A program made the translations under genes and the position numbers. A stretch of DNA of 62,453 nt from an uncultured Oscillospiraceae bacterium (GTDB taxonomy: Bacteria > Bacillota > Clostridia > Oscillospirales > Oscillospiraceae), in contig CALXGE010000001.1 in assembly GCA_944387775.1 (NCBI GenBank), forward strand, positions 1 to 62,453, read 5' to 3'. Positions 2,201 to 62,326 of the stretch are shown piece by piece. The first letter of the stretch is position 1, and the number at the start of each line of letters is the position of its first letter. The notes beneath the pieces were generated by a model. It saw only the letters and a list, made by a program, of their open reading frames with translations, was not told the origin of the DNA and did no database searches.

Positions 2201-2382
2201 TAACAGGGTGGTTATCATTATTGTTTTGCACATTAAAGCAACAGCGAAACAGTGTACGAATGTGTAAAAACTCTAAACCACTAAGCCGGGAAAGAAGTTT
2301 CTGATTTTCACAAAATAAGTTGAATAGGAGGGGGATATATTATAGGATAGTAATAAATTAGCAATAGATGGAGGAGAATGGC

Positions 2383-3948: not shown

Positions 3949-3957
3949 GCACAGAAA

Positions 3958-3982
3958 GCCCCGGAGCGGGGCGCTCCGGGGC
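3958..3982. terminator. Hairpin between convergent hutH and the yerC-like gene
   Basis: GCCCCGGAGCG-GGG-CGCTCCGGGGC stem-loop. No clear U-tract is present. Confidence 0.4.
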
Positions 3983-3987
3983 GGATG

Positions 3988-4311
3988 TCATTCTTCTATT
4001 TTCTGAGGGCTCTGGCTGTCTGACAGCAGGCGGCTGAGTACCGAACGGTATCCGCCGGAGCCATACTGCAGCTCCGTGCTGATGCGGGTGATGGTGGCGC
4101 TGCTGACGGAGGCCTGGCTGCGGATCTTTTCGTAGGTCTCCCCGGCCAGGAGGAGTTTGGCCACCTGGAGCCGCTGGGAGAGCAGCACCAACTCCTGCAT
4201 GGTGCACAGGTCGCTGAAAAAGGCGCGGCATTCCTCCGTGTCCTGCAGGGACAAAATGGCCTGAAACAGTTGCTCGATATTCTCATTCGGATTACGGAAT
4301 ATGTGATTCAT
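3988..4311 (-). CDS. YerC/YecD-family TrpR-like protein
   Basis: About 107 aa. The sequence ...CTMQELVLLSQRLQVAKLLLAGETYEKIRSQASVSSATITRIS... is the TrpR-like HTH signature of YerC/YecD. The start is at MNHIF, preceded by gaggag. Confidence 0.75.
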   Translation of the reverse strand: MNHIFRNPNENIEQLFQAILSLQDTEECRAFFSDLCTMQELVLLSQRLQVAKLLLAGETYEKIRSQASVSSATITRISTELQYGSGGYRSVLSRLLSDSQSPQKIEE

Positions 4312-4414
4312 AGCGCTACTCCTCTGCTGAAGATAGCAACAGTGTAGCATCGAAAAGCGAACGCGTCAACTTGCTTCATAATAAAAGTAATGGGAACCGG
4401 AAAGGAGATCAACC

Positions 4415-6427: not shown

Positions 6428-6435
6428 GGTATCCA

Positions 6436-6459
6436 TTCTTTTTCTTGAAAGAAAAAGAA
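6436..6459. repeat. 24-bp perfect AT-rich palindrome in the hutU-hutI spacer
   Basis: TTCTTTTTCTT-GA-AAGAAAAAGAA, read directly from the sequence. Confidence 0.8.
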
Positions 6460-6568
6460 CCAAAAAGAACTTTTGCGCGAAACTTCGTTTCGCTATAGCC
6501 GCAGTTTGTGTAAGATCAAGATCAAAATATAAGCAAAACATAGTTTTGCGCGAAAAGTTTTCTTTTGA

Positions 6569-6594
6569 TACTTTTCTTTTTTAAAAGAAAAGTA
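6569..6594. repeat. 26-bp perfect AT-rich palindrome abutting the hutI RBS
   Basis: TACTTTTCTTTT-TT-AAAAGAAAAGTA, read directly. It resembles the palindrome at 6436. Confidence 0.8.
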
Positions 6595-6613
6595 GGGAGG
6601 AAAGGAGTTTTTT

Positions 6614-7861
6614 ATGAGCGAGCTGTTGGTGGTGAACATCGGGACGCTGGCCACCCCGGTAGGGAAGAAGGCCAGAGGCGGCGTGGACCAGGGGGCGGTG
6701 CGCGTTCTCCATGATGCCTGGGTCCTGATTGAGGACGGTGTCATCACCGGCGTGGGCGAGGGTGCACCACCTTCCCATGCCGCAGCGCAGCGGATCGACG
6801 CCGGGGGACGGCTGGTGACCCCCGGACTGGTGGATGCCCATACCCATTTGATCTTCGGCGGCTGGCGCAACCACGAGATGGCCCTGAAGTTGCAGGGGGT
6901 TCCCTACCTGGACATTCTGGCCCAGGGAGGCGGCATCCTCTCCACCGTGGAGGCCACTCGCGCAGCCTCGGAGGAGGAGCTGGCGGCGAAGGCCCGGCTG
7001 GCCCTTGACGAGATGCTGGCTCTGGGCACCACCACCTGCGAGGCCAAGAGCGGCTACGGCCTGGACACCCGGCAGGAGCTCAAGCAGCTGCGGGCCATCC
7101 GGGATTTGCAGAAGAGTCACCCCATGGACATTGCCGCCACCTTTATGGGAGCCCACGCCCTGCCCGGGGAGTATAAAGAGAACCGGGAGGGGTACATTGA
7201 CCTTCTCTGCGAGGAGATGATTCCTGCCGTGGCAGCGGAGAAGCTGGCGGCGTTCTGCGACGTGTTCTGCGAGACGGGGGTGTTCACCGCCCAGGAGTCC
7301 CGCCGCATCCTGGAGACCGGGAAGCGGTACGGTCTCGTCCCCAAGATCCACGCCGACGAGATCGACCCCATCGGTGGTTCTCAGCTGGCGGGGGAGGTGG
7401 GGGCTATCTCCGCCGAGCACCTGATCGTCTGCCCTCCCGAAGGCATCGCCAGCATGGAAAAAGGCGGTACTGTGGCCTGCTTGCTGCCCGCTACCAGCCT
7501 CTATCTGGGGGCGACCTTTGCTCCTGCCCGGGACATGGTGTCCGCCGGCGTGCCGGTGGCTATGGCCAGCGATTTCAACCCCGGCTCCTGCCCCTGCCTC
7601 AACATGCAGCTGGTGATGAACCTGGGGTGCTTGCGCTACCGGCTGACCCCGGAGGAGGTCCTCACCGCCGTCACTTTGAACGGCGCCGCTGCCATCGCTA
7701 TGGCAGACAAGGTGGGCTCCGTGGAGGAGGGCAAGCAGGGGGATCTGGTGATCTGGGAGGCAGAGGACCTCAGCTACCTCTGCTACCGCATGGGCAGCAA
7801 TCTGGTCCGCACTGTGGTAAAGAGCGGGCAGACTTATTTCAATACGACACGGGCCAACTGA
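6614..7861 (+). CDS. hutI: Imidazolonepropionase
   Basis: 415 aa amidohydrolase with GLVDAHTHLIFGG (HxH) and KIHADE motifs. It sits in a hut context. Confidence 0.9.
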   Translation: MSELLVVNIGTLATPVGKKARGGVDQGAVRVLHDAWVLIEDGVITGVGEGAPPSHAAAQRIDAGGRLVTPGLVDAHTHLIFGGWRNHEMALKLQGVPYLDILAQGGGILSTVEATRAASEEELAAKARLALDEMLALGTTTCEAKSGYGLDTRQELKQLRAIRDLQKSHPMDIAATFMGAHALPGEYKENREGYIDLLCEEMIPAVAAEKLAAFCDVFCETGVFTAQESRRILETGKRYGLVPKIHADEIDPIGGSQLAGEVGAISAEHLIVCPPEGIASMEKGGTVACLLPATSLYLGATFAPARDMVSAGVPVAMASDFNPGSCPCLNMQLVMNLGCLRYRLTPEEVLTAVTLNGAAAIAMADKVGSVEEGKQGDLVIWEAEDLSYLCYRMGSNLVRTVVKSGQTYFNTTRAN

Positions 7862-7880
7862 GCCCGGAGAGGAGAACCAT

Positions 7881-8792
7881 ATGGCAAAACTGGTAGAGTG
7901 CATTCCCAATTTCAGCGTCAGCCGGGAGACGGACCCCGCTGTTTTCGAGGCATTGTCAGCTGCCGCCGCTGGTGTTCCCGGCTGCACGGTCCTGGACATC
8001 CAGAGCGACGGCGACCACAACCGCTGCGTATTCACCATGGTGGGCTCCCCCGGGGCCATTGAGGAGGCGGCCTTCCGCCTGACCCAGGTGGCCACGGAGC
8101 GCATCGACATGACCAAGCACAGGGGGCAGCACCCCCGGATGGGGGCCACCGACGTGATCCCCTTCGTGCCCACCATGGATATGACCGTGGAGGAGTGCGT
8201 GGCCCTCAGCAAACGGGTGGCCCAGCGGATCTGGGAGGAGCTGAAGGTGCCCTCCTTCCTCTATGAGGACTCCGCCTCCGCCCCTCATCGGGTGAATCTG
8301 GCCAGTGTGCGCAAGGGGCAGTTTGAGGGCATGCCGGAGAAGCTCCTCCAGCCGGAGTGGGCCCCGGACTACGGCGAGCGGAAGATCCACCCCACCGCCG
8401 GCATCATCGCCATCGGCGCCCGGATGCCGCTGATTGCCTACAATGTGAATCTGGATACCCCTGATCTGGAGATTGCCAGTAAGATCGCCAAGGCCATCCG
8501 GGGCGCCAACGGAGGCTTTAAGTACTGCAAGGCCATCGGCGTCATGCTGGAGGACCGGCAGATTGCCCAGGTGTCTATGAACCTGGTGAACTACGAGGGA
8601 ACACCCATCTACTATGTCTTTGAGATGATTCGGGCCCTGGCGGACCGCTACGGCGTACGGATTATCGGCAGCGAACTGGTGGGGCTGACTCCGGCCAAGG
8701 CGCTGTTGGACTGCGCGGAGTATTATTTGAAGATGGAGAACTTTGACTGCCACAAGCAGGTAATGGAGTACCATTTGGTTGGCATGGAATAA
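7881..8792 (+). CDS. ftcD: Glutamate formimidoyltransferase (FtcD transferase domain)
   Basis: 303 aa. The N-terminus MAKLVECIPNFSVSRE is the hallmark of formiminotransferases. Confidence 0.9.
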   Translation: MAKLVECIPNFSVSRETDPAVFEALSAAAAGVPGCTVLDIQSDGDHNRCVFTMVGSPGAIEEAAFRLTQVATERIDMTKHRGQHPRMGATDVIPFVPTMDMTVEECVALSKRVAQRIWEELKVPSFLYEDSASAPHRVNLASVRKGQFEGMPEKLLQPEWAPDYGERKIHPTAGIIAIGARMPLIAYNVNLDTPDLEIASKIAKAIRGANGGFKYCKAIGVMLEDRQIAQVSMNLVNYEGTPIYYVFEMIRALADRYGVRIIGSELVGLTPAKALLDCAEYYLKMENFDCHKQVMEYHLVGME

Positions 8793-25602: not shown

Positions 25603-26595
25603 TCAGCAGAGGGTGGCGTAGATGACGGCCTTGATGGTGTGCATGCGGTTCTCCGCCTCGTCAAAGACCACGGACTGGCGGGACTCGAAGACCTCGTTGG
25701 TGACCTCCATCTCAGGAATGCCGAACTTTTCTGCGATTTGGGCGCCGATGGTGGTCTTGGTATCATGGAAGGAGGGGAGGCAGTGCATGAAGAGGGCCTC
25801 CGGCTTGGCCTGGCCCATCACATCGGCGTTTACCTGGTACTTGCGCAGCAGGCGGATCCGGGAGTCCCATACCTCGTCGGGCTCGCCCATGGACACCCAG
25901 ATGTCGGTGTAGATCACGTCTGCATTTTTGGCACCCTCCGCCACATCCTCCGTCAGGCGGACGGTGGAGCCGTTTTCCGCGGCAATCTTCTTGGCCTCCT
26001 CCACCAGCCAGGGAGCGGGGAAGAGCTCCTTGGGAGCGCAGGCAGTGAAGTTGATGCCCATCTTGGCGCAGGCCACCATCAGGGAGTTGCCCATATTGTT
26101 GCGGGCGTCGCCCATGAAGGTGAAATTAAGGCCCTTGAGATGGCCAAACTTCTCCTCCATGGTCAGAAGGTCTGCCAGCATCTGGGTGGGATGGAACTGA
26201 TCCGTCAGGCCGTTCCACACGGGTACGCCAGCGTACTTGGCCAACTCCTCCACGATCTGCTGGTCAAAGCCCCGGTACTCGATGCCGTCGTACATCCGGC
26301 CCAGGACCCGGGCGGTGTCGGGGATGCTCTCCTTTTTGCCCATCTGGCTGCTGCCGGGGTCCAGATAGGTGACCCCCAGGCCCAGGTCCATGCCGGCCAC
26401 CTCGAAGGAGCAGCGGGTCCGGGTGGAGGTTTTCTCAAAGAGCAGAACGATGTTCTTTCCCTCTAGATAGCGGTGAGGGACACCGTTGCGCTTCATATTT
26501 TTGAACTGCTTGGACAGGTCCAGCAGATACCGGATCTCCTCCGGTGTGTAGTCCAACAGCTTCAGAAAATGTCTGCCACGAATATTTACGCCCAT
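25603..26595 (-). CDS. argF: Ornithine carbamoyltransferase, copy 1 (stand-alone)
   Basis: 330 aa with [13 protein letters not shown] (carbamoyl-phosphate site) and HCLP motifs. The start is at [11 protein letters not shown], as in copy 2; the 29-codon upstream extension in the ORF track is not shared with copy 2. Confidence 0.9.
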
Positions 26596-26707
26596 AATGC
26601 TTTCTCTTTTTCGTGAGTCTTTCGTGAATAGGCTGTCCCCGGAGATATCCAAGAGCTTATCTGAGCAGAATCGCCAATGCACTATAAGGGGACATATTTA
26701 TGCACTC

Positions 26708-41949: not shown

Positions 41950-43050
41950 TTATTTCATAACACCCAAGCCCTTGGCCACAATGGTGATAAAGTCCTGAAC
42001 ATTGGTCACAACAGTGGTGGCAGAGAGGCTTCCGCGGTCCAGCAGCTTGTTGACCACAAATTCGTCTGCATCTACTGTGTACAGGAAAACCGGGCGGATG
42101 GTGCCGTCCTCCAGGACCCGGAAGGAGGGGGTCATATTCCCAGTGGCGATGGTATGCAGCATGGTGGCAAGGCAGATGACGGTAGTGGCCTTTTTGACCA
42201 CCTGGCGCATGGCGGCCTGTCCCTCGTAGGCGTCTCCGATGACCTCCGGCAGAGGACCGTCATCCCGGATAGACCCGGTGAGTACAAATGGGATGTTGTG
42301 CTTGACCACGCTGTACATGATCCCGTTGTCAATGTGGTAATCCTGGATAAACTGAGAAATGGAACCGCTTCTCCGGACTTTGTTGATGACGTCCAGGTGG
42401 TTGTAGTGGCCGTTGGGCTGGGATACCTGGGTGTAGATATCCTGTCCCAGGGCGGTGTGCAGCAAGGCACCCTCCAGGTCATGGGTGGCCAGGGCGTTGC
42501 CTGCCAGCAGACCATGGGCGTAACCGTTTTCCACCAGCGCCTGCATGGCGGCTCTCGCGTCTGCGTCAAAGGCAAAGGCCGGTCCCATCACCCACACAAT
42601 GTTCCCATGCTCCTTTTCGTACCGCAGCAGTTCGAAGAGACGGTCGTAATCTCTGGCATAGGATGTCTCTCGGCTTCTGCCCTGGCGGAAGACGAACTGG
42701 TCGTCCATGTGCTCGCCGGGGACCTGGAAACCGGTGCAGTGCATATAGATTCCCTCTTCGCAGCGCTCTGTGCGTCCCAGGATTACCTTGTCGCCCTTGC
42801 GGATATTGCGGTTTTCTACCACAGCCAGGTGGCCGTCGTCGCAGATTATCACGCTGGAATCCATGCGGCTCTCCTCCGCCAGGACCCACTTCCCGTCGAT
42901 CTTGAAATATTCGGGGTACATGGAGGTGCTGTGGTAGTTGTCCGGCGCCACGCCGTCCTTCTCCGCTACGGCATATGTGACGTTGGGCGCGTCTACAAAC
43001 TGTGCCTTAGTAAAGTCTGGCGCGTAATAGATTGGCATATCAAACGGCAT
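41950..43050 (-). CDS. Putative LOR/SDH-type (TIGR00300-like) ornithine cyclodeaminase
   Basis: 366 aa. The blocks LLAGNALATHDLE, GIMYSVVKHNIPFVLTGSIRDDGPLPEVI and MLHTIATGNM match my recollection of the TIGR00300 / ArgZ C-terminal family. It is the last gene of the arcA-arcB operon. The assignment rests on memory only. Confidence 0.45.
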   Translation of the reverse strand: MPFDMPIYYAPDFTKAQFVDAPNVTYAVAEKDGVAPDNYHSTSMYPEYFKIDGKWVLAEESRMDSSVIICDDGHLAVVENRNIRKGDKVILGRTERCEEGIYMHCTGFQVPGEHMDDQFVFRQGRSRETSYARDYDRLFELLRYEKEHGNIVWVMGPAFAFDADARAAMQALVENGYAHGLLAGNALATHDLEGALLHTALGQDIYTQVSQPNGHYNHLDVINKVRRSGSISQFIQDYHIDNGIMYSVVKHNIPFVLTGSIRDDGPLPEVIGDAYEGQAAMRQVVKKATTVICLATMLHTIATGNMTPSFRVLEDGTIRPVFLYTVDADEFVVNKLLDRGSLSATTVVTNVQDFITIVAKGLGVMK

Positions 43051-43098
43051 GTGGAATTTCCTCCTGTGTTCTGATAATGGGGCTTTATGCTGCGGACC

Positions 43099-44091
43099 TC
43101 AGCAGAGGGTGGCGTAGATGACGGCCTTGATGGTGTGCATGCGGTTCTCAGCCTCGTCAAAGACCACGGACTGGCGGGATTCGAAGACCTCGTTGGTGAC
43201 CTCCATCTCAGGAATGCCGAACTTCTCTGCGATCTGGGCGCCGATGGTGGTTTTGGTGTCGTGGAAGGAGGGGAGGCAGTGCATGAAGAGGGCCTCCGGC
43301 TTGGCCTGGCCCATCACATCGGTGTTTACCTGGTACTTGCGCAGCAGGCGGATCCGGGAGTCCCATACCTCGTCGGGCTCGCCCATGGACACCCAGATGT
43401 CGGTGTAGATCACGTCTGCATTTTTGGCGCCCTCCGCCACATCCTCCGTCAGGCGGACGGTGGAGCCGTTTTCCGCGGCGATCTTCTTGGCCTTCTCCAC
43501 CAGCCAGGGAGCGGGGAAGAGCTCCTTGGGAGCGCAGGCAGTGAAGTTGATGCCCATCTTGGCGCAGGCTACCATCAGGGAGTTGCCCATATTGTTGCGG
43601 GCATCGCCCATGAAGGTGAAATTAAGGCCCTTGAGATGGCCAAACTTCTCCTCCATGGTCAGAAGGTCTGCCAGCATCTGGGTGGGATGGAACTGATCCG
43701 TCAGGCCGTTCCACACGGGTACGCCAGCGTACTTGGCCAACTCCTCCACGATCTGCTGGTCAAAGCCCCGGTACTCGATGCCGTCGTACATCCGGCCCAG
43801 GACCCGGGCGGTGTCGGGGATGCTCTCCTTTTTGCCCATCTGGCTGCTGCCGGGGTCCAGATAGGTGACCCCCAGGCCCAGGTCCATGCCGGCCACCTCG
43901 AAGGAGCAGCGGGTCCGGGTGGAGGTTTTCTCAAAGAGCAGAACGATGTTCTTTCCCTCCAGATAGCGGTGAGGGATACCGTTACGCTTCATATTTTTGA
44001 ACTGCTTGGAGAGGTCCAGCAGATACCGGATCTCCTCCGGTGTGTAGTCCAACAGCTTCAGAAAATGTCTTCCACGAATGTTGACACCCAT
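43099..44091 (-). CDS. arcB: Ornithine carbamoyltransferase, copy 2 (catabolic context)
   Basis: 330 aa, differing from copy 1 at 3 residues. An aaaggag RBS precedes it, and it starts 52 nt downstream of arcA. Confidence 0.92.
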
Positions 44092-44142
44092 ATTTTTCTC
44101 CTTTTCTAATTCTATTTTCGCAGATGATATGATGATAACATT

Positions 44143-45375
44143 TTACCAAGAAATGGTCTCGCGCACCAGAGGCATGCTCATACATCTGGGGCCGCCTCTG
44201 CCCCGGGAGAGCTCAGAACTGGGCATTTCCAGGACCTGGACACCGCTATCCTCCAAGAGCCGGTTGGTAATATAATTTCGGTCGTAGACGACCACCTTTC
44301 CCGGCTCGATGCACAGTGTATTGGAGCCATCGTTCCATTGCTCCCGCTCTGCAGCGATCCGATCTTTGCCGCCGCAATGGATCATGGTTACGTGATCCGT
44401 TCCCAGGGAGGACGCCAGAACATCCGGGAGAGGAGAGGAAAGCTGTGCCACACGCAGCTCCGTATTGTCTCTGCCGCCGGGCCGGATGCTGTAGATGCGG
44501 AGGCTTCCCAGAATTCCGGGATGGATGACAAATTTATCGCGATCTACCTGAGTAAACACAGTGTCCAAATGCATATAGGCGCGGATGCTGGGGATGTCTA
44601 AGGCCAGGACCGTATCGATCTCACAGGAAGGATCACGGAACATATTCTGGGCCAGGATTTCAATGGCTTCCGGCGTGGTTCGCTGGGAGATTCCTACTGC
44701 CAACACATGGGAGCTGAGATTGAGAATATCGCCTCCCTCCACAGAGAAGGGGAGGTCACGATTGTAATAAAACACCGTTCCGGAAAGATCGGGATGATAC
44801 TCCAGAATATACTGCCCAAAGATTGTTTCTCGACGTCTGGTTTTGGAATACATCCTATTCAGGCTGACCCCTCTGCCGATAGAAGCGAATGGATCTCTGG
44901 TAAAGTAGAGGTTGGGGATGGGGTCGAGGATGAAGTGGCCACCGGTGCGGACGAGGTTTGTCAAGGGGCTGCTGATAGCAGAGCGCAGCTCCTGCATCTG
45001 TACACCGGACATGAGCTTCAAAACCAGTTCTTTCTCGTCCCGGATCTCTGTGAGCAGCTCATACAGCTGCTGACTGTACTGATTGGCTGTGCTGCCGCCT
45101 TCCCGGATGAACTGACGAAGGAAGTCCTCTTTTATCTGTGGAGACAGTTTAAATACTTCCGCTGTCAGATCCTCCAGATATTTGACTTCCACGCCGTTTT
45201 CCGTCAGGATCCGGGCAAAAAAGTCATGCTCTCTCCGTGCGGTTTCCAGATAGGGAATGTCGTCGAACAGCAGTCGTTCCAGTTCCTCCGGTACCAGGTG
45301 CTCAAGCTCAATGCCGGGTTTATGCAGCATGACGGTTTTCAGTTTTCCGATCTCACTGGTCACATGGATGGGCAT
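44143..45375 (-). CDS. arcA: Arginine deiminase
   Basis: 410 aa with an N-terminal IHVTSEIGKLKTVMLHKPG and a C-terminal GRGGPRCMSMP (catalytic Cys), both typical of ADI. Confidence 0.92.
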   Translation of the reverse strand: MPIHVTSEIGKLKTVMLHKPGIELEHLVPEELERLLFDDIPYLETARREHDFFARILTENGVEVKYLEDLTAEVFKLSPQIKEDFLRQFIREGGSTANQYSQQLYELLTEIRDEKELVLKLMSGVQMQELRSAISSPLTNLVRTGGHFILDPIPNLYFTRDPFASIGRGVSLNRMYSKTRRRETIFGQYILEYHPDLSGTVFYYNRDLPFSVEGGDILNLSSHVLAVGISQRTTPEAIEILAQNMFRDPSCEIDTVLALDIPSIRAYMHLDTVFTQVDRDKFVIHPGILGSLRIYSIRPGGRDNTELRVAQLSSPLPDVLASSLGTDHVTMIHCGGKDRIAAEREQWNDGSNTLCIEPGKVVVYDRNYITNRLLEDSGVQVLEMPSSELSRGRGGPRCMSMPLVRETISW

Positions 45376-50564: not shown

Positions 50565-50643
50565 CGTTAAAGATGGTTGTCGCTGTGCTCTGAGAGCATG
50601 CCTGCACGCAAGATCCTGGCGCATGGTGCTCCGCGATGTGGTG

Positions 50644-51543
50644 TTAAGTTTCTGCCTCTGAGAGCATCATTTGCTTCAACGCCGCGGCTGCAGCGCTGAG
50701 GCATTTTGTTTTGTCTTCCAGCAGGACGATGGCTCTTTCCGCCTTCAATCCAATCACTTCGATGGGGACGATTGTTTTCTGCTCCAGATCTCGCTTTGCC
50801 ATGAATTCCGGTACAAAACCAATACCAAGTCCTGCTTTGATCATCGGCAGAATCTGATCGGACGTGGCCAGATCAATATCCGGCTGCCACTCCAGACCAT
50901 AGGGGAGGAACAGGTGGGAGTAGAAATCGTAGGTTTTTGCATGCCGTCCCAGACTGACGATGGGATAAGAAAACACTTCACTTGGAGTGATCCGGCGCTT
51001 TTGGGAGAAATCAGAGGAAGCTGCTGCGACAAGAACCTCTTCAAAAGTCAAAAGGTGGGTACTCTGTATATCAGGAAGGAAATCAATGGGGGAGGTGACC
51101 ACGGCCAGGTCCAGCAACCCCTTATGCAAAGCCGCCGCTGTGCTGGAAGTAGATCCGTTGGTAATGTAAAGGCGGATGCCCGGGTATGCTGCCCTGAATT
51201 TTGCCAGCACATCCAGCAGGACGCCGTATAGTGCGGTTTCTGTAGCCCCAATGCGAACGGTGCCAGTGCGCATGCTCCCGACGCCGGACAGCTCGTTTTC
51301 CGCCTCTCGCAGCTGGGAGTAGGCGATTTGCACGTGGGCGTACAGCTTCTCGCCCTCCGGTGTGAGTGTGATGCCCTTGTTGGAGCGCGTCATCAGCCGG
51401 CAGCCAAGCTGGCTCTCCAGGTTATTCATATATTTGGTGATGTTTGGCTGGTTGCTGCGCAGGATCTCCGCGGCGTGGGAGATGCTGCCGTACTTCGCCA
51501 CATAATAAAAGATCCTATAATAGTCATAGGAGACCTTATCCAT
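50644..51543 (-). CDS. LysR-family transcriptional regulator
   Basis: 299 aa with an N-terminal HTH (YYRIFYYVAKYGSISHAAEILRSNQPNITKYMNNLE). It is divergent from the MATE gene. Confidence 0.85.
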   Translation of the reverse strand: MDKVSYDYYRIFYYVAKYGSISHAAEILRSNQPNITKYMNNLESQLGCRLMTRSNKGITLTPEGEKLYAHVQIAYSQLREAENELSGVGSMRTGTVRIGATETALYGVLLDVLAKFRAAYPGIRLYITNGSTSSTAAALHKGLLDLAVVTSPIDFLPDIQSTHLLTFEEVLVAAASSDFSQKRRITPSEVFSYPIVSLGRHAKTYDFYSHLFLPYGLEWQPDIDLATSDQILPMIKAGLGIGFVPEFMAKRDLEQKTIVPIEVIGLKAERAIVLLEDKTKCLSAAAAALKQMMLSEAET

Positions 51544-51763
51544 GTGATTCCTCCATACACAATCAATATAGTGACTATGTAATATATACTTTTTACATGA
51601 GGGTGAAATGATTATATTCTATGCGTGTGGAAAAGTCTATACGAGGAGGGTGCGGGTATGGAAAATTTTGCGATCTGCATTGGCCGTGAATATGGCAGCG
51701 GCATAGAAGAATGTGTGGACCTGATCAGAGGTAGTCTGTCCTACAGGAAGGTGGTGTGTTCCC

Positions 51764-53155
51764 ATGAATAAGGACCTGACTGTTGGGAAGCCATCCACGG
51801 TCCTGTGGCAATTCTGTCTTCCGCTGTTTGGAAGCATCATCTTCCAGCAGATCTACAATATCGCCGACAGCCTTGTTGCCGGGAAATTTGTAGGGGAGGA
51901 TGCCCTTGCCGCAGTGGGCAACAGCTATGAGATCACGTTGATCTTCATTGCCTTTGCTTTTGGGTGCAATATCGGCTGTTCCGTGGTCGTATCGCAGCTC
52001 TTTGGCGCCAGGCAGTACGGGGAAATGAAGACGGCGGTCAGAACAGCGATGCTTGGGAGTGCTGCGCTGTGCCTTGTGCTGATGGCGGCCGGTATCTTTG
52101 GCAGCGGGACGCTTCTCACATTGATCCGTACACCGGATAATATTTTTTCCGATTCCAAGCTGTACCTGGACATTTATGTGTGGGGACTTCCGTTTGTCTT
52201 CTTTTACAACATCTCGACGGGAATTTTCTCAGCCCTTGGCGACTCCAAGACGCCGTTCTGGTTCCTCGCTGCATCCTCCACGGCCAACATCTTTGTCGAT
52301 ATCCTCTTTGTCAAGGTATTTGGTATGGGTGTTGCGGGCGTTGCATGGGCGACGTTCCTTTGCCAGGGAATCAGCTGCCTTCTGGCACTGCTGTTCGTGC
52401 TGAGACGTCTGCAAAGCATTCCCACTGACGAGAAAGGGGAGTTTTTCTCCTTCGCGATGCTGAAAAACATTGCCGTCATAGCGGTTCCGAGTATCATGCA
52501 GCAGAGTTTTATATCCGTAGGAAATATCCTGATCCAAAGTGTCATCAATGGGTTTGGCTCCAGCGTGGTGGCGGGGTACTCTGCAGCAATTAAGCTGAAC
52601 AACTTGGTAATCACTTCATTTACAACACTGGGGAACGGAATCTCCAATTATACAGCCCAGAATCTTGGTGCCGGCAAGCTCCCGAGAATACGGGAGGGGT
52701 TCCGTGCCGGTATGAAAATGGTATGGCTACTCTGTGTCCCGCTGTTCCTGCTGTACATGTTCTGCGGCCAGACCCTGGTGACATTTTTCATGGACGAACC
52801 TTCCACGCAAGCTCTGCGGACTGGGATTGAAATTTTGAGGATTCTTTCCCCATTCTACTTTGTTATTTCGGTGAAGCTGGTGGCAGATGGTATTCTGCGC
52901 GGCACCGGAAGGATGAAGCAGTTCATGGTGGCAACCTTTACAGACCTGGTATTGCGCGTGCTCCTTGCATTTCTTCTTCCTCAAACGGCGCTGGGCTCCT
53001 TGGGTATCTGGTGTGCGTGGCCCATCGGTTGGTCGATTGCCTGTGTCTGCTCCGTGGCCTTTTACAAAAAAGGGGAGTGGGCAAAGGCAGATGTCGATGG
53101 TGTGCACGGTACCTCCTGCCGGAGTCTCGACAGAGCGAGTGCTTCAGGCAGGTAA
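51764..53155 (+). CDS. MATE-family efflux transporter
   Basis: 463 aa with 12 TM segments and an N-terminal ...LPLFGSIIFQQIYNIADSLVAGKFVGEDALAAVG... MATE signature. Confidence 0.85.
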   Translation: MNKDLTVGKPSTVLWQFCLPLFGSIIFQQIYNIADSLVAGKFVGEDALAAVGNSYEITLIFIAFAFGCNIGCSVVVSQLFGARQYGEMKTAVRTAMLGSAALCLVLMAAGIFGSGTLLTLIRTPDNIFSDSKLYLDIYVWGLPFVFFYNISTGIFSALGDSKTPFWFLAASSTANIFVDILFVKVFGMGVAGVAWATFLCQGISCLLALLFVLRRLQSIPTDEKGEFFSFAMLKNIAVIAVPSIMQQSFISVGNILIQSVINGFGSSVVAGYSAAIKLNNLVITSFTTLGNGISNYTAQNLGAGKLPRIREGFRAGMKMVWLLCVPLFLLYMFCGQTLVTFFMDEPSTQALRTGIEILRILSPFYFVISVKLVADGILRGTGRMKQFMVATFTDLVLRVLLAFLLPQTALGSLGIWCAWPIGWSIACVCSVAFYKKGEWAKADVDGVHGTSCRSLDRASASGR

Positions 53156-53399: not shown

Positions 53400-53870
53400 T
53401 TAATATTTGCAGAACTGCTCGCGAATAGAGGTCATTTCCTGGACGATATCATCTACATCCAGAACCATTTCCATCATGCCTACCTGCTCATCATAGATGG
53501 CAGAATCAAATTCGCCTTTGATTTCCGGCTCACAGACATGATATACCTTGAGTCCCAACGATACTCCTGTCAACGGACCTGCATAGGTGGGGTCACCATT
53601 GGTGACCGTCTCAGCAGCAAGACCGGAAGCTTCTCCCTCAGCAGCCCCCAGGAGAACGACGACGTTCTCAGGGCCGTATTGCTCGGAAAATTCCTTGACC
53701 CGCTTCTGATTTTCCAGATCCATTGCACCGGCGGCCGTTCAGACGAAGCATTCGGTAGAGGAAAATACAACCTCTGCTCCGGCGCTCTCCGCACAGGCCT
53801 CAATGGCCTGACCGGGGATACCGTCCCGGTCGCCGATAATGATTACCTTCTTGCCTTTCAGGATACCCAT
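53400..53870 (-). CDS. grdA: Glycine/sarcosine/betaine reductase complex selenoprotein A (in-frame UGA = Sec44)
   Basis: Reading through TGA at 53739-53741 joins [61 protein letters not shown]... to ORF 53400..53723. This gives 156 aa with the GrdA CFVU(Sec)TAAG active site. A ggaggcgcc RBS lies upstream. Confidence 0.85.
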
Positions 53871-53973: not shown

Positions 53974-54939
53974 TTATATTCTGGTCTTGAACACGGTCTG
54001 CTCGCTGACCGGTGTGGTCAGAGCCTGCAGCGCCACACCCACTCTGTGGTAGCGCAGCTTCCACTGCTCCTCCCGGGGGCTGTTGGGATCGCCCAGGGGG
54101 TAGGGGATAGAGATGGTGGGGACAATACGGTTGGCGCCCACCGTTGTGGAGACCGGGATCAGGTTACACATATGAACCACCGGGAACCCGGCCTTCTCAA
54201 ACTCTTTTACCATCGTTGCACCGCAACGCGTGCAGGTACCTCAGGTGGAGCCCATGATAATGGCGTCTACCTTGTCCTTTTTGAAATAGGGGATCATCTC
54301 CTGGGCCATGCGCCGGGCCTCCGCCTCGGTGGTGCCGGTACCGACGGTGCTGTAGAAGAAGTTATGGAGCCGGCCGATAGGATCGAAAACGTACTCCTCT
54401 GTGTCCTCGGCAGGGAGGTCTTTGACGATCTTCCCCAGGTACTCTGCCAGCCGGTGGCCCGCCCAGCGGAGGGCGTGGTTGCACTTCTGCTGTTCATGGC
54501 GCTCAAACTCCTCGTCGGTATCGCCCACCAGGCAGATATTGACCAGCTTGGACCAGTAGGTGTGCTTGGCGCCCTCGCTGCCCATGTCGATAACGCCGTC
54601 GCCAAAGGAGCCCCAGTTCTTAGCTACCACGGTGACGCAGCAGCCCTTAAGGGCCTTTAGCTCGCCGTCTCCCGCAGGGACCACGTCATCGGTGACCCCG
54701 GGGAACAGGCAGCGGCCGTCCATACGGCAGCGGGGCTCAATGGTCTCGATGACCGGCACAATTCTAGTGTCATCGCCGGGCCTGGCAATGACGATGTCCA
54801 GGTCGGTGATGTGTTCGTCGCAATCTTTCAGATAGGCGACAGCGGCATCCTTGTTAATGTAGAGGACGCCGTCCTCGAAAGCGTCCCGCTGTCCCAGCTG
54901 GACGTCTTTGACATACAGATTTCCGATATTCAGTTTCAT
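53974..54939 (-). CDS. UGA-containing chimeric selenoprotein: GrdE/GrdI-like N-terminus joined to a GrdB/GrdH-like Sec C-terminus
   Basis: ORFs 54241..54951 and 53974..54213 share one frame, separated by TGA (54241-54243) and 9 codons. Read-through gives ...AIIMGST-U-GTCTRCGATMVKEFEKAGFPVVH..., about 321 aa in total. The start is placed at ATG MKLNIGN (54939). Confidence 0.7.
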
Positions 54940-55037
54940 CTGATGTACCACTCCTCACTTTCTGTTCGTACATTTTTTGAAAATACAGAAGGCGCGTACA
55001 GAGTAGTGGATGAGCTGTCCACCTTTAACCAATCGCG

Positions 55038-55066
55038 ATTATAATATGTTCAAAACGGATTGTCAA
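55038..55066 (-). promoter_or_regulatory. Consensus sigma-70 promoter for the selenoprotein genes, with an overlapping AATCGCGATT palindrome
   Basis: The minus strand reads TTGACA, a 17-nt spacer, then TATAAT, followed directly by CGCGATTGG. The palindrome AATCGCGATT spans 55031-55040. Confidence 0.55.
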
Positions 55067-55163: not shown

Positions 55164-55823
55164 TTATTTGGAGTTTACTGTCAGAAATTCTATTGCCGCC
55201 AACATACGCTCTGTCTGCTGCTGATTGGCCAGGGTCCCCGCCTGGGTGCCACACTCCTCCAGCAGCTTCCGAAAATAGCATATGGTCAGGTCATTGATAA
55301 GGGATAGATGCTCTGCAGGGAAGAAACCCTCCTGGGCCAGGGGGGCCAACACCTTCTGGTTACGGGTTACCAGATCACCCGCCAGCAGCATTTCCCGCAC
55401 AGGGCCGTCTGTGACTGCAAGCTGACTGGGATAGACCTCGTAGTACCGCAGCACCGTTTCCTCTAAAGGTTTGCTGTGGGGGCGGAAAAACAGGTGATTA
55501 AATATCAATGGATGGGAAAAGGCGTGAAGGCAGAAGACTTTCCAGGTGTGCAGGTAGATCTCATAGGCACTTTGCAGCTGGGGAATATCTGCCGCCAGTG
55601 TGCGGCAGTAGTTCTCCAGGTAGCTCATGCTGGCCAGGGTGATCAGCTCGTCTGCGTCGTCAAAATACAGGTACAGAGTAGCACTGTTAAGTCCGGCGGT
55701 TTGGGCCACCTTCCGGATGGATACCTGCTGGATGCCTTCCAGATCAATGATCTCCCGGGTGCAGCGGATAAAGGTTGCAGTGATTTTATTGCGCTCTTGT
55801 GGTGTATATCGGTTTCTTCCCAT
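55164..55823 (-). CDS. TetR/AcrR-family transcriptional regulator
   Basis: 219 aa with an N-terminal HTH ...IIDLEGIQQVSIRKVAQTAGLNSATLYLYFDDADEL. The start is at MGRNRY; the upstream ORF-track extension is AT-rich, low-complexity sequence. Confidence 0.8.
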   Translation of the reverse strand: MGRNRYTPQERNKITATFIRCTREIIDLEGIQQVSIRKVAQTAGLNSATLYLYFDDADELITLASMSYLENYCRTLAADIPQLQSAYEIYLHTWKVFCLHAFSHPLIFNHLFFRPHSKPLEETVLRYYEVYPSQLAVTDGPVREMLLAGDLVTRNQKVLAPLAQEGFFPAEHLSLINDLTICYFRKLLEECGTQAGTLANQQQTERMLAAIEFLTVNSK

Positions 55824-56069: not shown

Positions 56070-57488
56070 GTGAGAAGACAAAAAGTCAATATCGTATTTC
56101 TGACGGCGGCGGCACTGGTAGCAGTGACGGCGCTGTGGGGCCTTCTGCGCCCAAAGCAGCTGGAGGCGGCTGCAGGAATCCTGTTTCAGGGCATCACCGG
56201 CGGCTTTGGCTGGTTCTATCCCTTGGCAATGACCCTGTTTACCGGCTTTGCTGTCTGGATTGGTTTTTTCAGCAAATATAAGCACATGCGGCTTGGTCCT
56301 GACGACTCCAGGCCGGAGTACAGCAATACCGCCTGGTTTGCGATGCTGTTTTCCGCCGGCATGGGTGTAGGCTTGGTGTTCTGGAGTGTGGCGGAGCCGC
56401 TGCAATTCTATGTGGAGCCTCTGGGCGCGGAAGGAGGGACCGCGGCGGCTGAGGAGTTTGCCTTTGCCAAAGCGTTCCTTCACTGGGGGATCCATCCCTG
56501 GGCCAACTACGCCGTAATGGCTCTGGCCCTGGCCTATATGCAATATCGGAAAGGTCAGCCATCCCTGATCAGCTCTCTCTTTGTCCCCGTGGTGGGAGAG
56601 AAGCATACCAGAGGTGTCCTTGGTAAGTGTATTGATGTGCTGGCCCTTCTGGCCACTGCCGGCGGAGTGTGCACCACTCTGGGCCTTGGCGTTATGCAGA
56701 TCAACTCCGGTATGAACTTTATTTTCGGCATTCCCATTACCACAGTGCTGGTGGTGGGAACGGTCGTCGTTCTCTCGGTAATTTATGTAGCTACCGCTGC
56801 GGCGGGAGTGGAGAAGGGAAGTGCCCTGGTTTCCAACGCCAATGTGATTATTGCCGCTGCGGTGGTAGTGTTTCTTTTTTTGGCGGGCCCTACAGTGGAC
56901 ATCCTCAACAATCTGATGGAAGGAACTGGCGTTTATCTCTCCCGGTTCATTCACGACAGCTTCGCCCTGGGAGCCTTTGAACACAAAGAGTGGTACGGCA
57001 GCTGGACCATTTACTACTGGGCCTGGTGGATCGCCTGGGCGCCTTTTACCGGCTCCTTTATTGCACGAATCTCCCGAGGCAGAACGGTCAGGGAATTGAT
57101 TGCAGGGGTCATGCTGCTGCCGGCAGCTGCCTCCATGGTATGGTTTGCCGTTTTTGGTACCCTGGGGATGGACCTGGGCCTGGACTTTGCACGTGAGGCT
57201 GTTCAGTCCGCCTCCACAGCACTCTTCACCGTTCTGGTCCAATACCCTCTGGGCAAAATCCTATCTGTGGTTATGCTGGTTCTGGTGTGTACCTTTTTCT
57301 GCGCCAGCGCCACGTCCGCTACCATTGTTCTGGGCATGTACTCAGAGCACGGTACGTTGCATCCCTCTAACCGAAGCAAAGTCATCTGGGGTGTCCTGTT
57401 GGCTGTGCTGACTTTGCCCCTGATGCTCTCCAGCGAAAACGGTCTGGACATGCTCAAGACCCTTTCTATCGTTGTGGGATTTGTTTGA
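56070..57488 (+). CDS. BCCT-family (betaine/carnitine/choline) transporter
   Basis: 472 aa with a GTG start after gaaaggag. It shows BCCT blocks ...RPEYSNTAWFAMLFSAGMGVGLVFWSVAEP... and ...YYWAWWIAWAPFTGSFIARISRGRT.... It ends abruptly at ...LSIVVGFV, so it may be C-terminally short. Confidence 0.85.
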   Translation: MRRQKVNIVFLTAAALVAVTALWGLLRPKQLEAAAGILFQGITGGFGWFYPLAMTLFTGFAVWIGFFSKYKHMRLGPDDSRPEYSNTAWFAMLFSAGMGVGLVFWSVAEPLQFYVEPLGAEGGTAAAEEFAFAKAFLHWGIHPWANYAVMALALAYMQYRKGQPSLISSLFVPVVGEKHTRGVLGKCIDVLALLATAGGVCTTLGLGVMQINSGMNFIFGIPITTVLVVGTVVVLSVIYVATAAAGVEKGSALVSNANVIIAAAVVVFLFLAGPTVDILNNLMEGTGVYLSRFIHDSFALGAFEHKEWYGSWTIYYWAWWIAWAPFTGSFIARISRGRTVRELIAGVMLLPAAASMVWFAVFGTLGMDLGLDFAREAVQSASTALFTVLVQYPLGKILSVVMLVLVCTFFCASATSATIVLGMYSEHGTLHPSNRSKVIWGVLLAVLTLPLMLSSENGLDMLKTLSIVVGFV

Positions 57489-58524: not shown

Positions 58525-59214
58525 GTGAGAAGCATACTGATCGTGGAGGACGATACGCTCCTGAACCGTACTTTGGGATATAACCTGGCATCTGACGGCT
58601 ATGATGTCACATCGGCCTGCAACTATAAGAGTGCTGTTCAACGGTTGAAAGAGAAAGAATTTGATATTGCTCTCCTGGACATCAATCTGCCCGATGGCAG
58701 AGGGCTGGACCTTTGCGAAGAAATCCGGGGCCGTGGCCAGTACACCTATATCATTTTTATCACCGCCAACGATAAGGAAAGCGATATGCTGGAGGGCTAT
58801 GAAGCTGGCGGGGCTGACTATGTAACAAAGCCCTTTTCGGTGACGGTGCTGTGCAAAAAAGTGGCAGCCATCTTCGCCAATATGGAGCTTCACGCACCTC
58901 GTCACGATCTGTTTGATGATGGCTTCCTGAAAATTGATTTCTCTGCGCAAAGCGCATCCCTTGCCGGGGCGTCGCTGGACTTTACGCCGAAGGAGTACCG
59001 CACCCTGTTTCTGTTTGTGAAGAATCCCCGCATTATCTTGACCAAACGGCAGATTTGAGAGAAGTTGTGGGACATTGACGGGGACTTTGTGGACGAGCAC
59101 ACCCTGACCACTATTATTAGTCGCATCCGTAAGAAAATTGAAACGAACGAGCACAAGTATATCAAGACGGCCTACGGAATGGGCTATCAATGGATCGGCG
59201 GTGAGCAAAAATGA
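58525..59214 (+). pseudogene. OmpR-family response regulator interrupted by an in-frame TGA
   Basis: GTG start after gagggag. A receiver domain (ILIVEDD...DINLPDG) and a winged-helix domain are present. TGA at 59056-59058 falls inside ...ILTKRQI*EKLWDIDGDFVDEHTLTTIISRIRKKIE..., where homologues have Leu. Confidence 0.7.
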
Positions 59215-60316: not shown

Positions 60317-60361
60317 GACCGGTACCCTTTTTTGCATCAAGCAGAGAAAGGCAGTATTCCT

Positions 60362-60666
60362 ATGAGTATCTTGCAAACAAGTAATTTGAAAAAATACTAC
60401 GGCACAGAGCCCAATATCACCCGTGCTCTGGATGGTGTGACCTTATCTGTAGAGGAGGGAGAGTTTGTAGCCGTGGTCGGGACATCCGGCTCCGGAAAAT
60501 CCACCCTGCTGCACATGATGGGCGGGCTGGACATGCCTACTTCCGGCAGCGTCTTGGTGCGGGATAGGGAACTAGCGAAGATGAATGACGAGCAGCTTAC
60601 CATCTTCCGCCGCCGCAATATCGGCTTTGTGTTCCAGAACTACAACTTGGTACCAATTCTCAATGC
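60362..60666 (+). pseudogene. ABC ATP-binding protein (MacB/FtsE-like), N-terminal third only
   Basis: It has Walker A GTSGSGKST and the Q-loop region ...IGFVFQNYNLVPILNA. Homology then stops. The signature motif and Walker B are absent. Confidence 0.7.
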
Positions 60667-61927
60667 TGATCGGTTCTGTTTTCAGCGTTGGCATGAGCCT
60701 TGTAGAATCTGTGAAGATGGAGCAAATACACCTTGCGGGTACGATGGCTCACGCTGCTGTGGGGCATCCTACGGCTTCACAGATCGAGCAGCTTCACAAT
60801 TTGGATTATGTGAAAACGGTGGGAACCAGCAATAGTGTCGGCTATGTAGAAAATACGGCGGAAATGGGAAATATCAGTTTGACCCTTCATTATTTTGATG
60901 AAACAGAATGGGAAGAACTGCGCGCCCCTGCCTATGTGGATGTAGAGGGCAGCTATCCAGAGAAAGAAAATGAGATCATGGTTTCTCGTGCAGTTTTGGA
61001 GCGGATGGGAATTAATGATCCATCTATCGGTATGGAAATCCCCCTTGCCTACTACACAGACAGCGACAAGAAAGGTGCATTGATGGAGGAAACCTTCTGC
61101 CTGTCAGGGTGGTTTACAAGCTATGCCTTTGTCCAATCAACCGATACTACAGACGTGATTTTCGTTTCCCAGGAGCTGTCACAAAAATATGGAAAGACCG
61201 TGGAGAGAGATGGCTCTGCGTCGGTGAAATTTGTAGATGAAACGCGCATTTCTGAGTATTGCGACGCATTGGCAATCGACTTGAGCTTATCGGAAAATCA
61301 GCCCATTGCAACGGTACAGCTCTACGATACAAGTGCTGGACAGGAAATAGCCATCGTGCTTTCCTTAGGTGCTGTTGCAGTTTTCCTGATTTTTACCGGG
61401 TATCTGCTGATCTACAATATCCTGTATATTTCAATCTCCCGTGATGTGCGGTTTTACGGGTTGCTGAAAACGCTTGGCGCAACAGCGAAACAAATCAAGA
61501 GCGTCGTTAGAGGGCAAATCTTGCGGCTTTGCCTCATTGGAATACCTGTTGGTATCGTTATTTCGCTCGTGCTCTCGCTGAGAATGGTTCCATTCTTTAT
61601 ATCTGCGCTTGATGCTGTTTCTGCAGATGGAGCCGTTGTGTCTTTTTCTCCCGTCATCTATGTAGGTGCGAGCGTTTTGCCATTGCTTACAGCAATATTG
61701 GGAGCATCGAAACCAGCCCGAAAAGCGGCAAGTATTTCTCCCATAGAAGCACAAAAATATACGGGAGTAGCTGGAAACATAAACGGTATACGGTCAGTTG
61801 CTCACGGAAAACCCATACGAATGGCTTGGCGCAATATCTTCCGGGGCAAAAAGCGTGCGGGGGTGGTGTTGCTCAGTCTGTTTTTAGGCGTGACGACTTT
61901 TTTGACCGTCACAACATTGGTTTTTAG
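60663..61927 (+). pseudogene. FtsX-family ABC permease fragment (N-terminus deleted, C-terminus truncated)
   Basis: In the other frame, from about 60663, the sequence reads LIGSVFSVGMSLVESVKMEQIHLAGT..., followed by an extracellular domain and the FtsX TM bundle (...RFYGLLKTLGATAKQIKSVV...). It is cut at about 61925 after ...FLTVTTLVFSM. Confidence 0.65.
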
Positions 61928-62326
61928 TATGAGGATAATGTGTCCGGTAAGATCGACGATGCCCGGTTTGCCAAAATGTCCAAGCGGTATGAGCAGGAGC
62001 AGGGCGAAAACGCCAAGAAAATCAAGGCGCTTCGTCTGGAACTGAAAAAGCTGGAAGATAAGCGGATGGATGTGGACACCTTCTTGGAAACGGTGCGCCG
62101 CTACACCGACGCTACCGCCATCACCAAGCGCATGGTTGCCGAACTCATTGAGTATATCGAGGTCTATCCTGCGGTCAAGGAGGACGGTGTTACCAATCAG
62201 CGGGTGACGATCCACTACAACTGCATCGGGGCCTTTGAGGTGCCGGATCGCCGGAAAATCCCCGAGCGGGATATTCTGCTGGAAACGAGAAAAGGCGTAG
62301 CATTAAGCTACGCCCCGGCGGTGTAA
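61928..62326 (+). mobile_element. 5'-truncated large serine recombinase fragment (DUF4368-like C-terminal region)
   Basis: YEDNVSGKIDDARFAKMSKRYEQEQ...ITKRMVAELIEYIEVYPA...VTIHYNCIGAFEVP is the C-terminal coiled-coil/DUF4368 pattern of clostridial large serine recombinases. No N-terminal catalytic domain precedes it. Confidence 0.6.

Follow-up and report, generated by a model that had tools for sequence, protein, structure and literature searches.

A fused grdI-grdH reading frame in a gut Clostridia species as a probable young in-frame deletion allele of betaine reductase component B

An open reading frame (ORF) in which the N-terminal part of a GrdI-type protein runs directly into the selenocysteine (Sec) end of a GrdH-type protein raises the question of whether it encodes a new kind of selenoprotein or is what a deletion has left of two adjacent genes. 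The ORF is located on a stretch of 62,453 nucleotides from an uncultured Oscillospiraceae bacterium, and this whole stretch, as analysed here, is called the window. An earlier note, made from the sequence alone, had offered two readings: either an in-frame deletion had reduced neighbouring grdI-like and grdH-like genes to this relic, or the ORF encodes a minimal fused selenoprotein B of a kind not described before. The fused ORF consists of the following features.

53974 to 54939, minus strand: chimeric grdI'-'grdH ORF of 321 codons followed by TAA and containing an in-frame UGA, defined by translation, HMM coordinates and collinear alignment to intact alleles
54376 to 54939, minus strand: N-part, codons 1-188, equal to GrdI residues 1-188 and matching PF09338 positions 1-184 of 426
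53974 to 54375, minus strand: C-part, codons 189-321 plus the stop codon, equal to GrdH residues 307-439, containing U-x-x-C-x-x-C and matching NF040795 positions 302-435
54241 to 54243, minus strand: in-frame UGA (Sec codon), derived from grdH codon 351
54377 to 54379, minus strand: 3-nt microhomology TAT at the deletion junction, present once in the window and at both end points in the intact same-species locus L097

Translation from the ATG at 54939 to the TAA at 53976..53974 confirmed the proposed read-through of the single in-frame TGA (54243..54241), which gives a product of 321 aa (approximately 35.7 kDa); termination at the UGA gives 232 residues (25.9 kDa). The GrdE/GrdG/GrdI-type character suggested for the N-terminal part was borne out, as residues 1-188 matched the Pfam family PF09338 (Gly_reductase) at positions 1-184 of 426 (E 1.8e-62) and the NCBIfam GrdG model at positions 1-184 (133 bits). 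Residues 188-232 matched the final 45 positions of Pfam PF07355 (GRDB, 303-347 of 347), and residues 188-321 matched the NCBIfam model betaine_GrdH (NF040795) at positions 302-435 of 435 with 255 bits, in agreement with the assignment of the C-terminal 130 aa or so to the Sec end of a protein-B selenosubunit. The Sec motif, ...GST-U-GTCTRCG, fits U-x-x-C-x-x-C, and a SECIS element follows immediately 3' of the UGA. The HMM coordinates also placed the abrupt domain switch at residue 188 (...YVFDPI/GRLH..., 54376/54375), where the earlier note had seen it. The tryptic peptide across this junction is DLPAEDTEEYVFDPIGR.

The fused ORF is a fragment of GrdH and of the PF09338 family and a member of neither. 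Its 255 bits are far from the cut-off of 775 bits that a full-length GrdH of about 435 positions reaches with NF040795, and it covers positions 1-184 only of the 426 positions of PF09338. The share of each profile kept is 13% for PF07355 and 43% for PF09338. Searches of the PDB sequences with GrdH and GrdI found no relatives.

The signals and genes surrounding the fused ORF are those of a selenoprotein operon with its regulator and a divergent transporter gene.

55038 to 55066, minus strand: sigma-70-type promoter TTGACA-17-TATAAT of the grd operon, 12/12 matches
54951 to 54956, minus strand: Shine-Dalgarno sequence GAGGAG, 11 nt 5' of the ATG, read from the sequence
54203 to 54240, minus strand: bacterial SECIS element, Rfam RF01990 (SECIS_4), 60.8 bits, E 1.7e-13
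53400 to 53870, minus strand: intact grdA for selenoprotein A, 156 codons with UGA at 53741..53739, PF04723 270 bits
55164 to 55823, minus strand: TetR-family regulator of 219 aa upstream of the operon, a PF00440 gene present in all relatives
55153 to 55120: terminator hairpin of the TetR gene
56070 to 57488, plus strand: 3'-truncated gene for a glycine-betaine BCCT transporter, 472 aa versus 517, divergent from the operon

The perfect promoter, the preserved Sec codon and the intact downstream grdA of the earlier note were all found. The SECIS element begins right after the UGA (SECIS_4 gathering score, 38), and the grdA product matched NF040748 at positions 1-151 of 151 with 277 bits (cut-off 130) and has the motif CFV-U-TAAG, indicating a full-length GrdA. 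A non-exhaustive Pfam scan of 37 larger ORFs of the window (128-1043 aa), all located beyond the grd genes, identified none of the GrdC, GrdD and TrxB families, consistent with the observation that the window contains no grdC or grdD. A fragment of a DUF4368 recombinase is located at the window end.

In order to find other alleles of this locus, contigs of the same species were retrieved by exact match to the TetR protein of the window or to a C-terminal piece of its GrdA. Intact grdI (442 aa) and grdH (439 aa) genes were found on contigs 97-99.8% identical to the window at the nucleotide level, from at least nine other samples (loci L097/L112, L099, L104, L106, L107, L108, L110, L111 and L114), and the gene order TetR-grd-grdA-MATE-LysR-GGDEF is common to these contigs and the window. 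The intact grdH encodes 350 aa up to the Sec codon, and codon 351 is the sole in-frame stop in every intact grdH. Alignment of the window with L097 showed a single clean gap of exactly 1704 bp, corresponding to the loss of 568 codons. The segment missing from the window comprises grdI codons 189-442 with the stop codon, a 21-nt spacer, and grdH codons 1-306. L097/L112 have these 1704 bp in addition and are 99.6-99.8% identical to the window on either side of the gap. The end points in L097 are ...GATCCTAT/TCTC on the left and ...GGCGTTAT/CGGC on the right, with TAT at both.

The alleles of the species differ at 39 sites in the retained N-part and at 18 in the retained C-part, and at none of these 57 variable sites does the intact allele L097 depart from the fused one, which indicates that the deletion arose on an L097-like haplotype. 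The N-part is 100% identical to the grdI of L097 in both amino acids and nucleotides, the C-part is identical to the 3' end of its grdH, and relative to this parent haplotype no amino-acid change has occurred in the fused allele since the deletion. These comparisons provide what is expected of a recent deletion allele, namely an intact counterpart within the species whose flanks are collinear and nearly identical, and a microhomology (TAT) that explains the junction; the deletion relic proposed in the earlier note was thus borne out by a defined 1704-bp difference from intact alleles.

The same single clean gap was obtained when the window was aligned to two loci of sister species, L001 (a Logan contig) and L004 (MAG UMGS1188, deposited as 'uncultured Clostridiales'), which are 85-92% identical to the window at the nucleotide level and have the order BCCT, TetR, grdI (442 aa), grdH (439 aa, Sec351) and grdA. 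UMGS1188, at 86-92% nucleotide identity, is the nearest named genome and belongs to another species than the window. The intact GrdH of L001 scored 794 bits against betaine_GrdH, above the 775 cut-off, which identifies the parent genes as those of betaine reductase component B.

Because other strains of the species keep grdI and grdH whole, the fused ORF is regarded as a loss-of-function allele and not as a new enzyme, and we consider it very likely that it is a young, segregating, in-frame deletion allele of grdI and grdH. The ancestral locus, which other strains of the species retain, consists of BCCT, TetR, the promoter, grdI (442 aa), the 21-nt spacer, grdH (439 aa, Sec351) and grdA, from which a single event of illegitimate recombination or slipped replication between the two TAT copies excised the 1704 bp. 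Since 1704 is divisible by three (a 1-in-3 chance), the start codon, ribosome-binding site and promoter of grdI now read directly into the 3' end of grdH with its UGA, SECIS element and stop codon. A transcript that includes grdA is probably still made from the inherited promoter, possibly with a 26-kDa or a 35.7-kDa (Sec-containing) polypeptide. The fused allele has spread to many hosts, and part of the carriers, including the source of the window, have later lost the 3' end of a transporter gene that had become useless.

The deletion removed 254 of the 442 residues of GrdI (57%) and 306 of the 439 residues of GrdH (70%), and reduction of betaine to trimethylamine is therefore not expected of the remnant. 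The part of GrdI that is gone would take in the counterpart of the pyruvoyl-forming half of GrdE/GrdG, which contains the cleavage site and gives the pyruvoyl-bearing subunit. Judging from its sequence, the fused product should not act as protein B.

The junction is found far beyond the window. It was present in at least 13 further assemblies (L002, L003, L085-L094 and L113) from differing studies and assemblers, including SPAdes (NODE_), MEGAHIT (k141_), Logan and scaffolded sets. The possibility raised in the earlier note of a misassembly at about position 54375, through collapse or chimerism of the contig in the window's source assembly, is contradicted by these identical junctions. Furthermore, the end points have only 3 nt in common, far under any assembler k-mer, and hence offer no repeat on which an assembler could have collapsed; an artefact has practically no chance of being the explanation. 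The 232-aa product (P0194) was recorded on 16 contigs, in 35 index blocks, making the fused allele the most often recorded single variant of its protein cluster, with the reservation that contig counts are not allele frequencies, as the look-ups merge similar places and favour long contigs. The core haplotype of the fused allele was found on diverse flanks (L086, L088 and L113), and the allele has recombined into other backgrounds (L113 and L086). Given this spread and recombination, the fused allele is not obviously deleterious.

Outside this species the architecture was not encountered. A degenerate DNA pattern for EYVFDPIGRLH gave 0 matches in 185,579 GTDB species representatives and 0 matches in JGI metagenome contigs, and all of the 80 closest genome loci aligned to query residues 1-188/190 alone, none of them across the junction. 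A word-index search with the junction peptide returned 37 candidates and missed an identical protein, P0001, and an exhaustive HMMER search was therefore relied on instead. With a 93-aa peptide centred on the junction as query, P0001 was the only one of 1.84 billion representative proteins to span both sides, and it is the same allele, 100% identical to the fused ORF of the window. A few matches that reached slightly past the junction in this search proved to be GrdH fragments and not fused homologues. P0001 was also the only protein with both Pfam domains among the best 120 of 1114 matches to the N-part, whose closest full-length relatives are ordinary 442-aa GrdI-type proteins. The search for full-length homologues sharing the junction, suggested in the earlier note, thus returned the same allele and nothing else.

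The locus has been damaged more than once in this species. In three samples (L098, L101 and L103), codon R163 of grdI is changed to TGA and a 1-bp frameshift is present in codon 195 of the BCCT gene. The grdH of this allele has six amino-acid differences from that of L097, three of which (P25S, G30W and D260A) occur in no other allele examined. In one further sample (L109), codon Q210 of grdI is changed to TAG. The R163* and Q210* variant proteins were recorded on 5 and 6 contigs, respectively. In addition, the window itself has a second deletion, of 1178 bp (junction 57481/57482), that took two DUF3841 genes and, from the BCCT gene, its final 45 codons. This deletion is present in 7 of the 12 fused-allele assemblies, the window included, whose contig reaches the 3' end of the BCCT gene; among contigs covering the region it was seen only on fused backgrounds, and the 517-aa transporter is kept in the fused loci L086, L088 and L091 and in the intact locus L097. 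Insertion of a mobile element was ruled out as the cause of the truncation by comparison with L086, which showed a plain 1178-bp deletion. Such repeated losses are the pattern expected of a pathway that has turned dispensable. Taken together with the absence of orthologues of the fused architecture, these defects are in substance what the earlier note had described for a pure pseudogene. The grdA gene is intact in every allele class, perhaps owing to its use by another Grd complex.

The sequence of the remnant gave no positive sign of decay within the fused ORF itself, either in the codon-change counts within the species or in a three-taxon comparison of the window, L004 and L001. In the latter, the window branch had 19 synonymous and 1 non-synonymous singleton codon changes (of which the N-part accounts for 13 and 1, the C-part for 6 and 0), a ratio attributable to the fact that most of the branch predates the deletion, which is much younger than the branch. 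No SNP was found in the first 232 codons of the fused contigs, a number subject to ascertainment bias since these contigs were retrieved by their identical protein. The last 88 codons are free of this bias, and in them the fused alleles have 3 synonymous and 3 non-synonymous changes, which are few and mostly shared with intact haplotypes. Changes private to fused alleles are G268D, which falls in the conserved VGANRIVP stretch and comes from a contig with 2.5x coverage, and one synonymous site; the remaining variants of the fused loci L086, L091 and L113 are shared with intact haplotypes via recombination. Frameshifts from single-base indels in L002 and L003 were considered as evidence of decay and set aside as unsafe, because sequencing errors may account for them; in L003, 8 indels fall within 2.3 kb, four of them in the BCCT gene. 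The intact alleles are under strong purifying selection, with variation mostly at third positions. The lack of a positive sign of decay in the fused ORF fits a very young allele, and constraint could give that pattern too.

An alternative is that the fused ORF encodes a functional minimal fused selenoprotein kept under selection, perhaps as redox partner to GrdA or as a protein B for some new substrate, or that the chimera, translated through its UGA, is a 35.7-kDa selenoprotein with an acquired use, for instance as a GrdA redox partner or decoy, whose spread would reflect selection for the new protein and not for losing betaine reduction. The frame, start codon, UGA and SECIS element are intact, an intact grdA is located downstream, the allele is frequent and has a wide geographic spread, and non-synonymous changes are not in excess. 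A weak likeness of 13 residues between the C-terminal half of GrdI and the GrdH C-part (LEDAGIPVVGVSN / FEKAGFPVVHMCN, E 0.045) also hints that the swapped segments may be distantly related. The earlier note had argued from the promoter, the preserved Sec codon and the intact grdA that the ORF is still expressed; for its function these elements carry no weight, since intact, nonsense and fused alleles share them base for base. The promoter and the UGA with its SECIS element were base-identical across those alleles of all three classes that were checked, except for one spacer substitution in the intact locus L108, and were thus inherited unchanged and have no bearing on function; the fused allele is too young for its promoter, Sec codon and SECIS element to have decayed. 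Furthermore, the architecture is restricted to one haplotype of one species, and the identity of the fused allele to its intact parental haplotype leaves no time in which selection could have acted or become visible. The species has two further nonsense knock-outs of the same gene, the betaine transporter was secondarily lost on the fused background, and the portions of PF07355 and PF09338 that are left are small. The proposal of an undescribed minimal fused selenoprotein B, found in no other lineage and unchanged from the parent haplotype, was accordingly not upheld; we regard a selected minimal selenoprotein as highly improbable, and an acquired use as a redox partner or decoy as equally so. 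If the chimera did have a use of its own, one would be looking at the birth of a selenoprotein.

It is conceivable, though on balance doubtful, that the same deletion allele owes its frequency to positive selection for losing betaine reduction rather than to drift under relaxed selection. Three independent loss-of-function alleles (the deletion, R163* and Q210*) are recorded on 16, 5 and 6 contigs, each of them in several samples, the core haplotype lies on diverse flanks as if spread by recombination, and the transporter was also hit in two lineages. However, intact alleles are still common (at least nine samples) and under strong purifying selection, and the contig counts are no measure of allele frequency. 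Under drift as under selection, the fused ORF would be the same deletion allele of grdI and grdH.

The betaine reductase GrdHI converts glycine betaine to trimethylamine (PMC9321204, PMC6964529), and grdH serves as a marker gene for trimethylamine producers of the gut (PMC6964529). The occurrence of at least three independent betaine reductase knock-outs beside intact alleles in this species of gut Clostridia, which is related to UMGS1188, implies that the capacity to form trimethylamine from betaine varies between strains. Since the remnant keeps 133 grdH codons, the Sec site, the SECIS element and grdA, pipelines for annotation or read mapping could score its carriers as betaine reducers or report a 'fusion protein'. 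The locus is a clean example of an in-frame deletion that mimics a designed-looking chimera.

In conclusion, the fused ORF is a remnant of a known system and represents no new protein family or selenoprotein class. Like betaine reductase component B (GrdI and GrdH, acting with GrdA), it has GrdI residues 1-188, GrdH residues 307-439, a UGA and a SECIS_4 element, and, as in a betaine reductase operon, the window has the TetR gene, the promoter, grdA downstream and a BCCT betaine transporter gene upstream. Unlike component B, it is without 568 codons (GrdI 189-442 and GrdH 1-306) and joins two polypeptides in one. The same Pfam families also include GrdE/GrdG and GrdB/GrdF of glycine and sarcosine reductase, and the fused ORF aligns over the N-terminal 184 profile positions (GrdG model) but is far under the equivalog cut-offs of 780-800 bits. 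The closest parallel in kind is with in-frame deletion pseudogenes made by microhomology, which likewise have a single clean gap, a 3-nt microhomology and retained flanking signals, and the fused allele segregates within its species beside nonsense alleles. In contrast to the usual deletion pseudogene, it has stayed in frame with its Sec codon and SECIS element kept, and therefore looks like a tidy selenoprotein gene.

Besides the grdI-grdH fusion, two nonsense alleles of grdI were found among contigs of the same species. Three samples (L098, L101 and L103) carried R163* (CGG to TGA at codon 163), accompanied by a 1-bp frameshift at codon 195 of the BCCT glycine-betaine transporter gene and, within this lineage, by additional amino-acid changes in grdH, and one further sample (L109) carried Q210* (CAG to TAG at codon 210). 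Within this one species, R163* and Q210* each knock out the operon independently.

The BCCT gene was also structurally variable at its 3' end, where in the window it is shortened:

56070-57488, plus strand: BCCT glycine-betaine transporter, shortened, with a deletion junction at 57481/57482

A 1178-bp deletion has shortened the encoded transporter from 517 aa at full length to 472 aa and taken out two DUF3841 genes as well. This deletion is polymorphic within the species, and the only carriers seen were strains with the grdI-grdH fusion. A third structural variant of the BCCT 3' end, present in L089, L098-L101, L103 and L104, encodes a 479-aa transporter adjoined by a defence-like 774-aa TIR/NB-ARC/TPR gene, with homology to the window stopping at 57469, and co-occurs with intact as well as fused grd alleles.

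In L088 and L102, which represent one strain, 15 synonymous differences in the TetR gene were clustered within approximately 90 nt (equivalent to 55637-55722 of the window), a pattern suggestive of a short tract imported by recombination from a diverged lineage. The fused gene of L113 (ERZ27259767) displayed the intact-allele haplotype, including G16A, V25I and other differences, in its 5' part at codons 16-121, and the standard fused haplotype in the junction region; this allele is either a recombinant or the product of a mixed-strain assembly. Gene order differed from that of the sister species UMGS1188 (L004), in which the MATE-LysR block (918-3870 of L004) is located upstream of the BCCT gene rather than 3' of grdA as in the species of the window (50635-53080 of the window). 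An apparent frameshift near codon 355 was observed in the BCCT gene of L004.

The neighbouring two-component/ABC module and the window end contained the following features:

58525-59214, plus strand: OmpR-type response regulator with an in-frame TGA, the stop being at 59056-59058
60332-60835, plus strand: ABC-transporter ATPase ORF, which terminates after profile position 77 of 137
60585-62045, plus strand: ORF with an FtsX permease domain, overlapping and out of frame with the ATPase ORF
61940-62326, plus strand: 128-aa ORF with DUF4368, at the window end

The stop in the regulator gene resulted from a TTA to TGA change (Leu to stop) that cuts off the DNA-binding domain; this is a further in-frame TGA that does not serve as a Sec codon. 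Among contigs with the fused allele, L085 and L087 share this stop, and L086 encodes an intact regulator of 229 aa. The overlap of the ATPase and FtsX ORFs suggests that a further frameshift or deletion has affected this module. Large serine recombinases typically carry DUF4368 at their C-terminus, and the ORF containing this domain possibly marks the boundary of a mobile element.

Genes for amino-acid catabolism were found elsewhere in the window:

2368-8792, 25603-26682 and 41950-45375: amino-acid catabolism genes

These include a histidine-utilisation set (histidine ammonia-lyase, urocanase, an imidazolonepropionase-like amidohydrolase and formiminotransferase), and the window additionally encodes arginine deiminase, an ArgZ-like protein and two ornithine carbamoyltransferase paralogues.

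Weak local BLASTP similarity (E 0.045) was detected between residues ~334-346 of GrdI from the parental haplotype L097 (LEDAGIPVVGVSN), which belong to the deleted C-terminal half, and residues ~247-259 of the fused protein (FEKAGFPVVHMCN), which belong to the retained GrdH part. The similarity may hint at a nucleotide-binding-like subdomain common to both subunits.

Two other short ORFs were found to terminate at the GrdH Sec codon following an unrelated N-terminus, which was a TenA/PqqC-like PF03070 segment in P0126 (137 aa, from a 646-bp ENA contig) and an FAD-binding GxGxxG segment in P0162 (123 aa). In other organisms, these two ORFs may represent additional remnants of grdH or else chimeric contigs.
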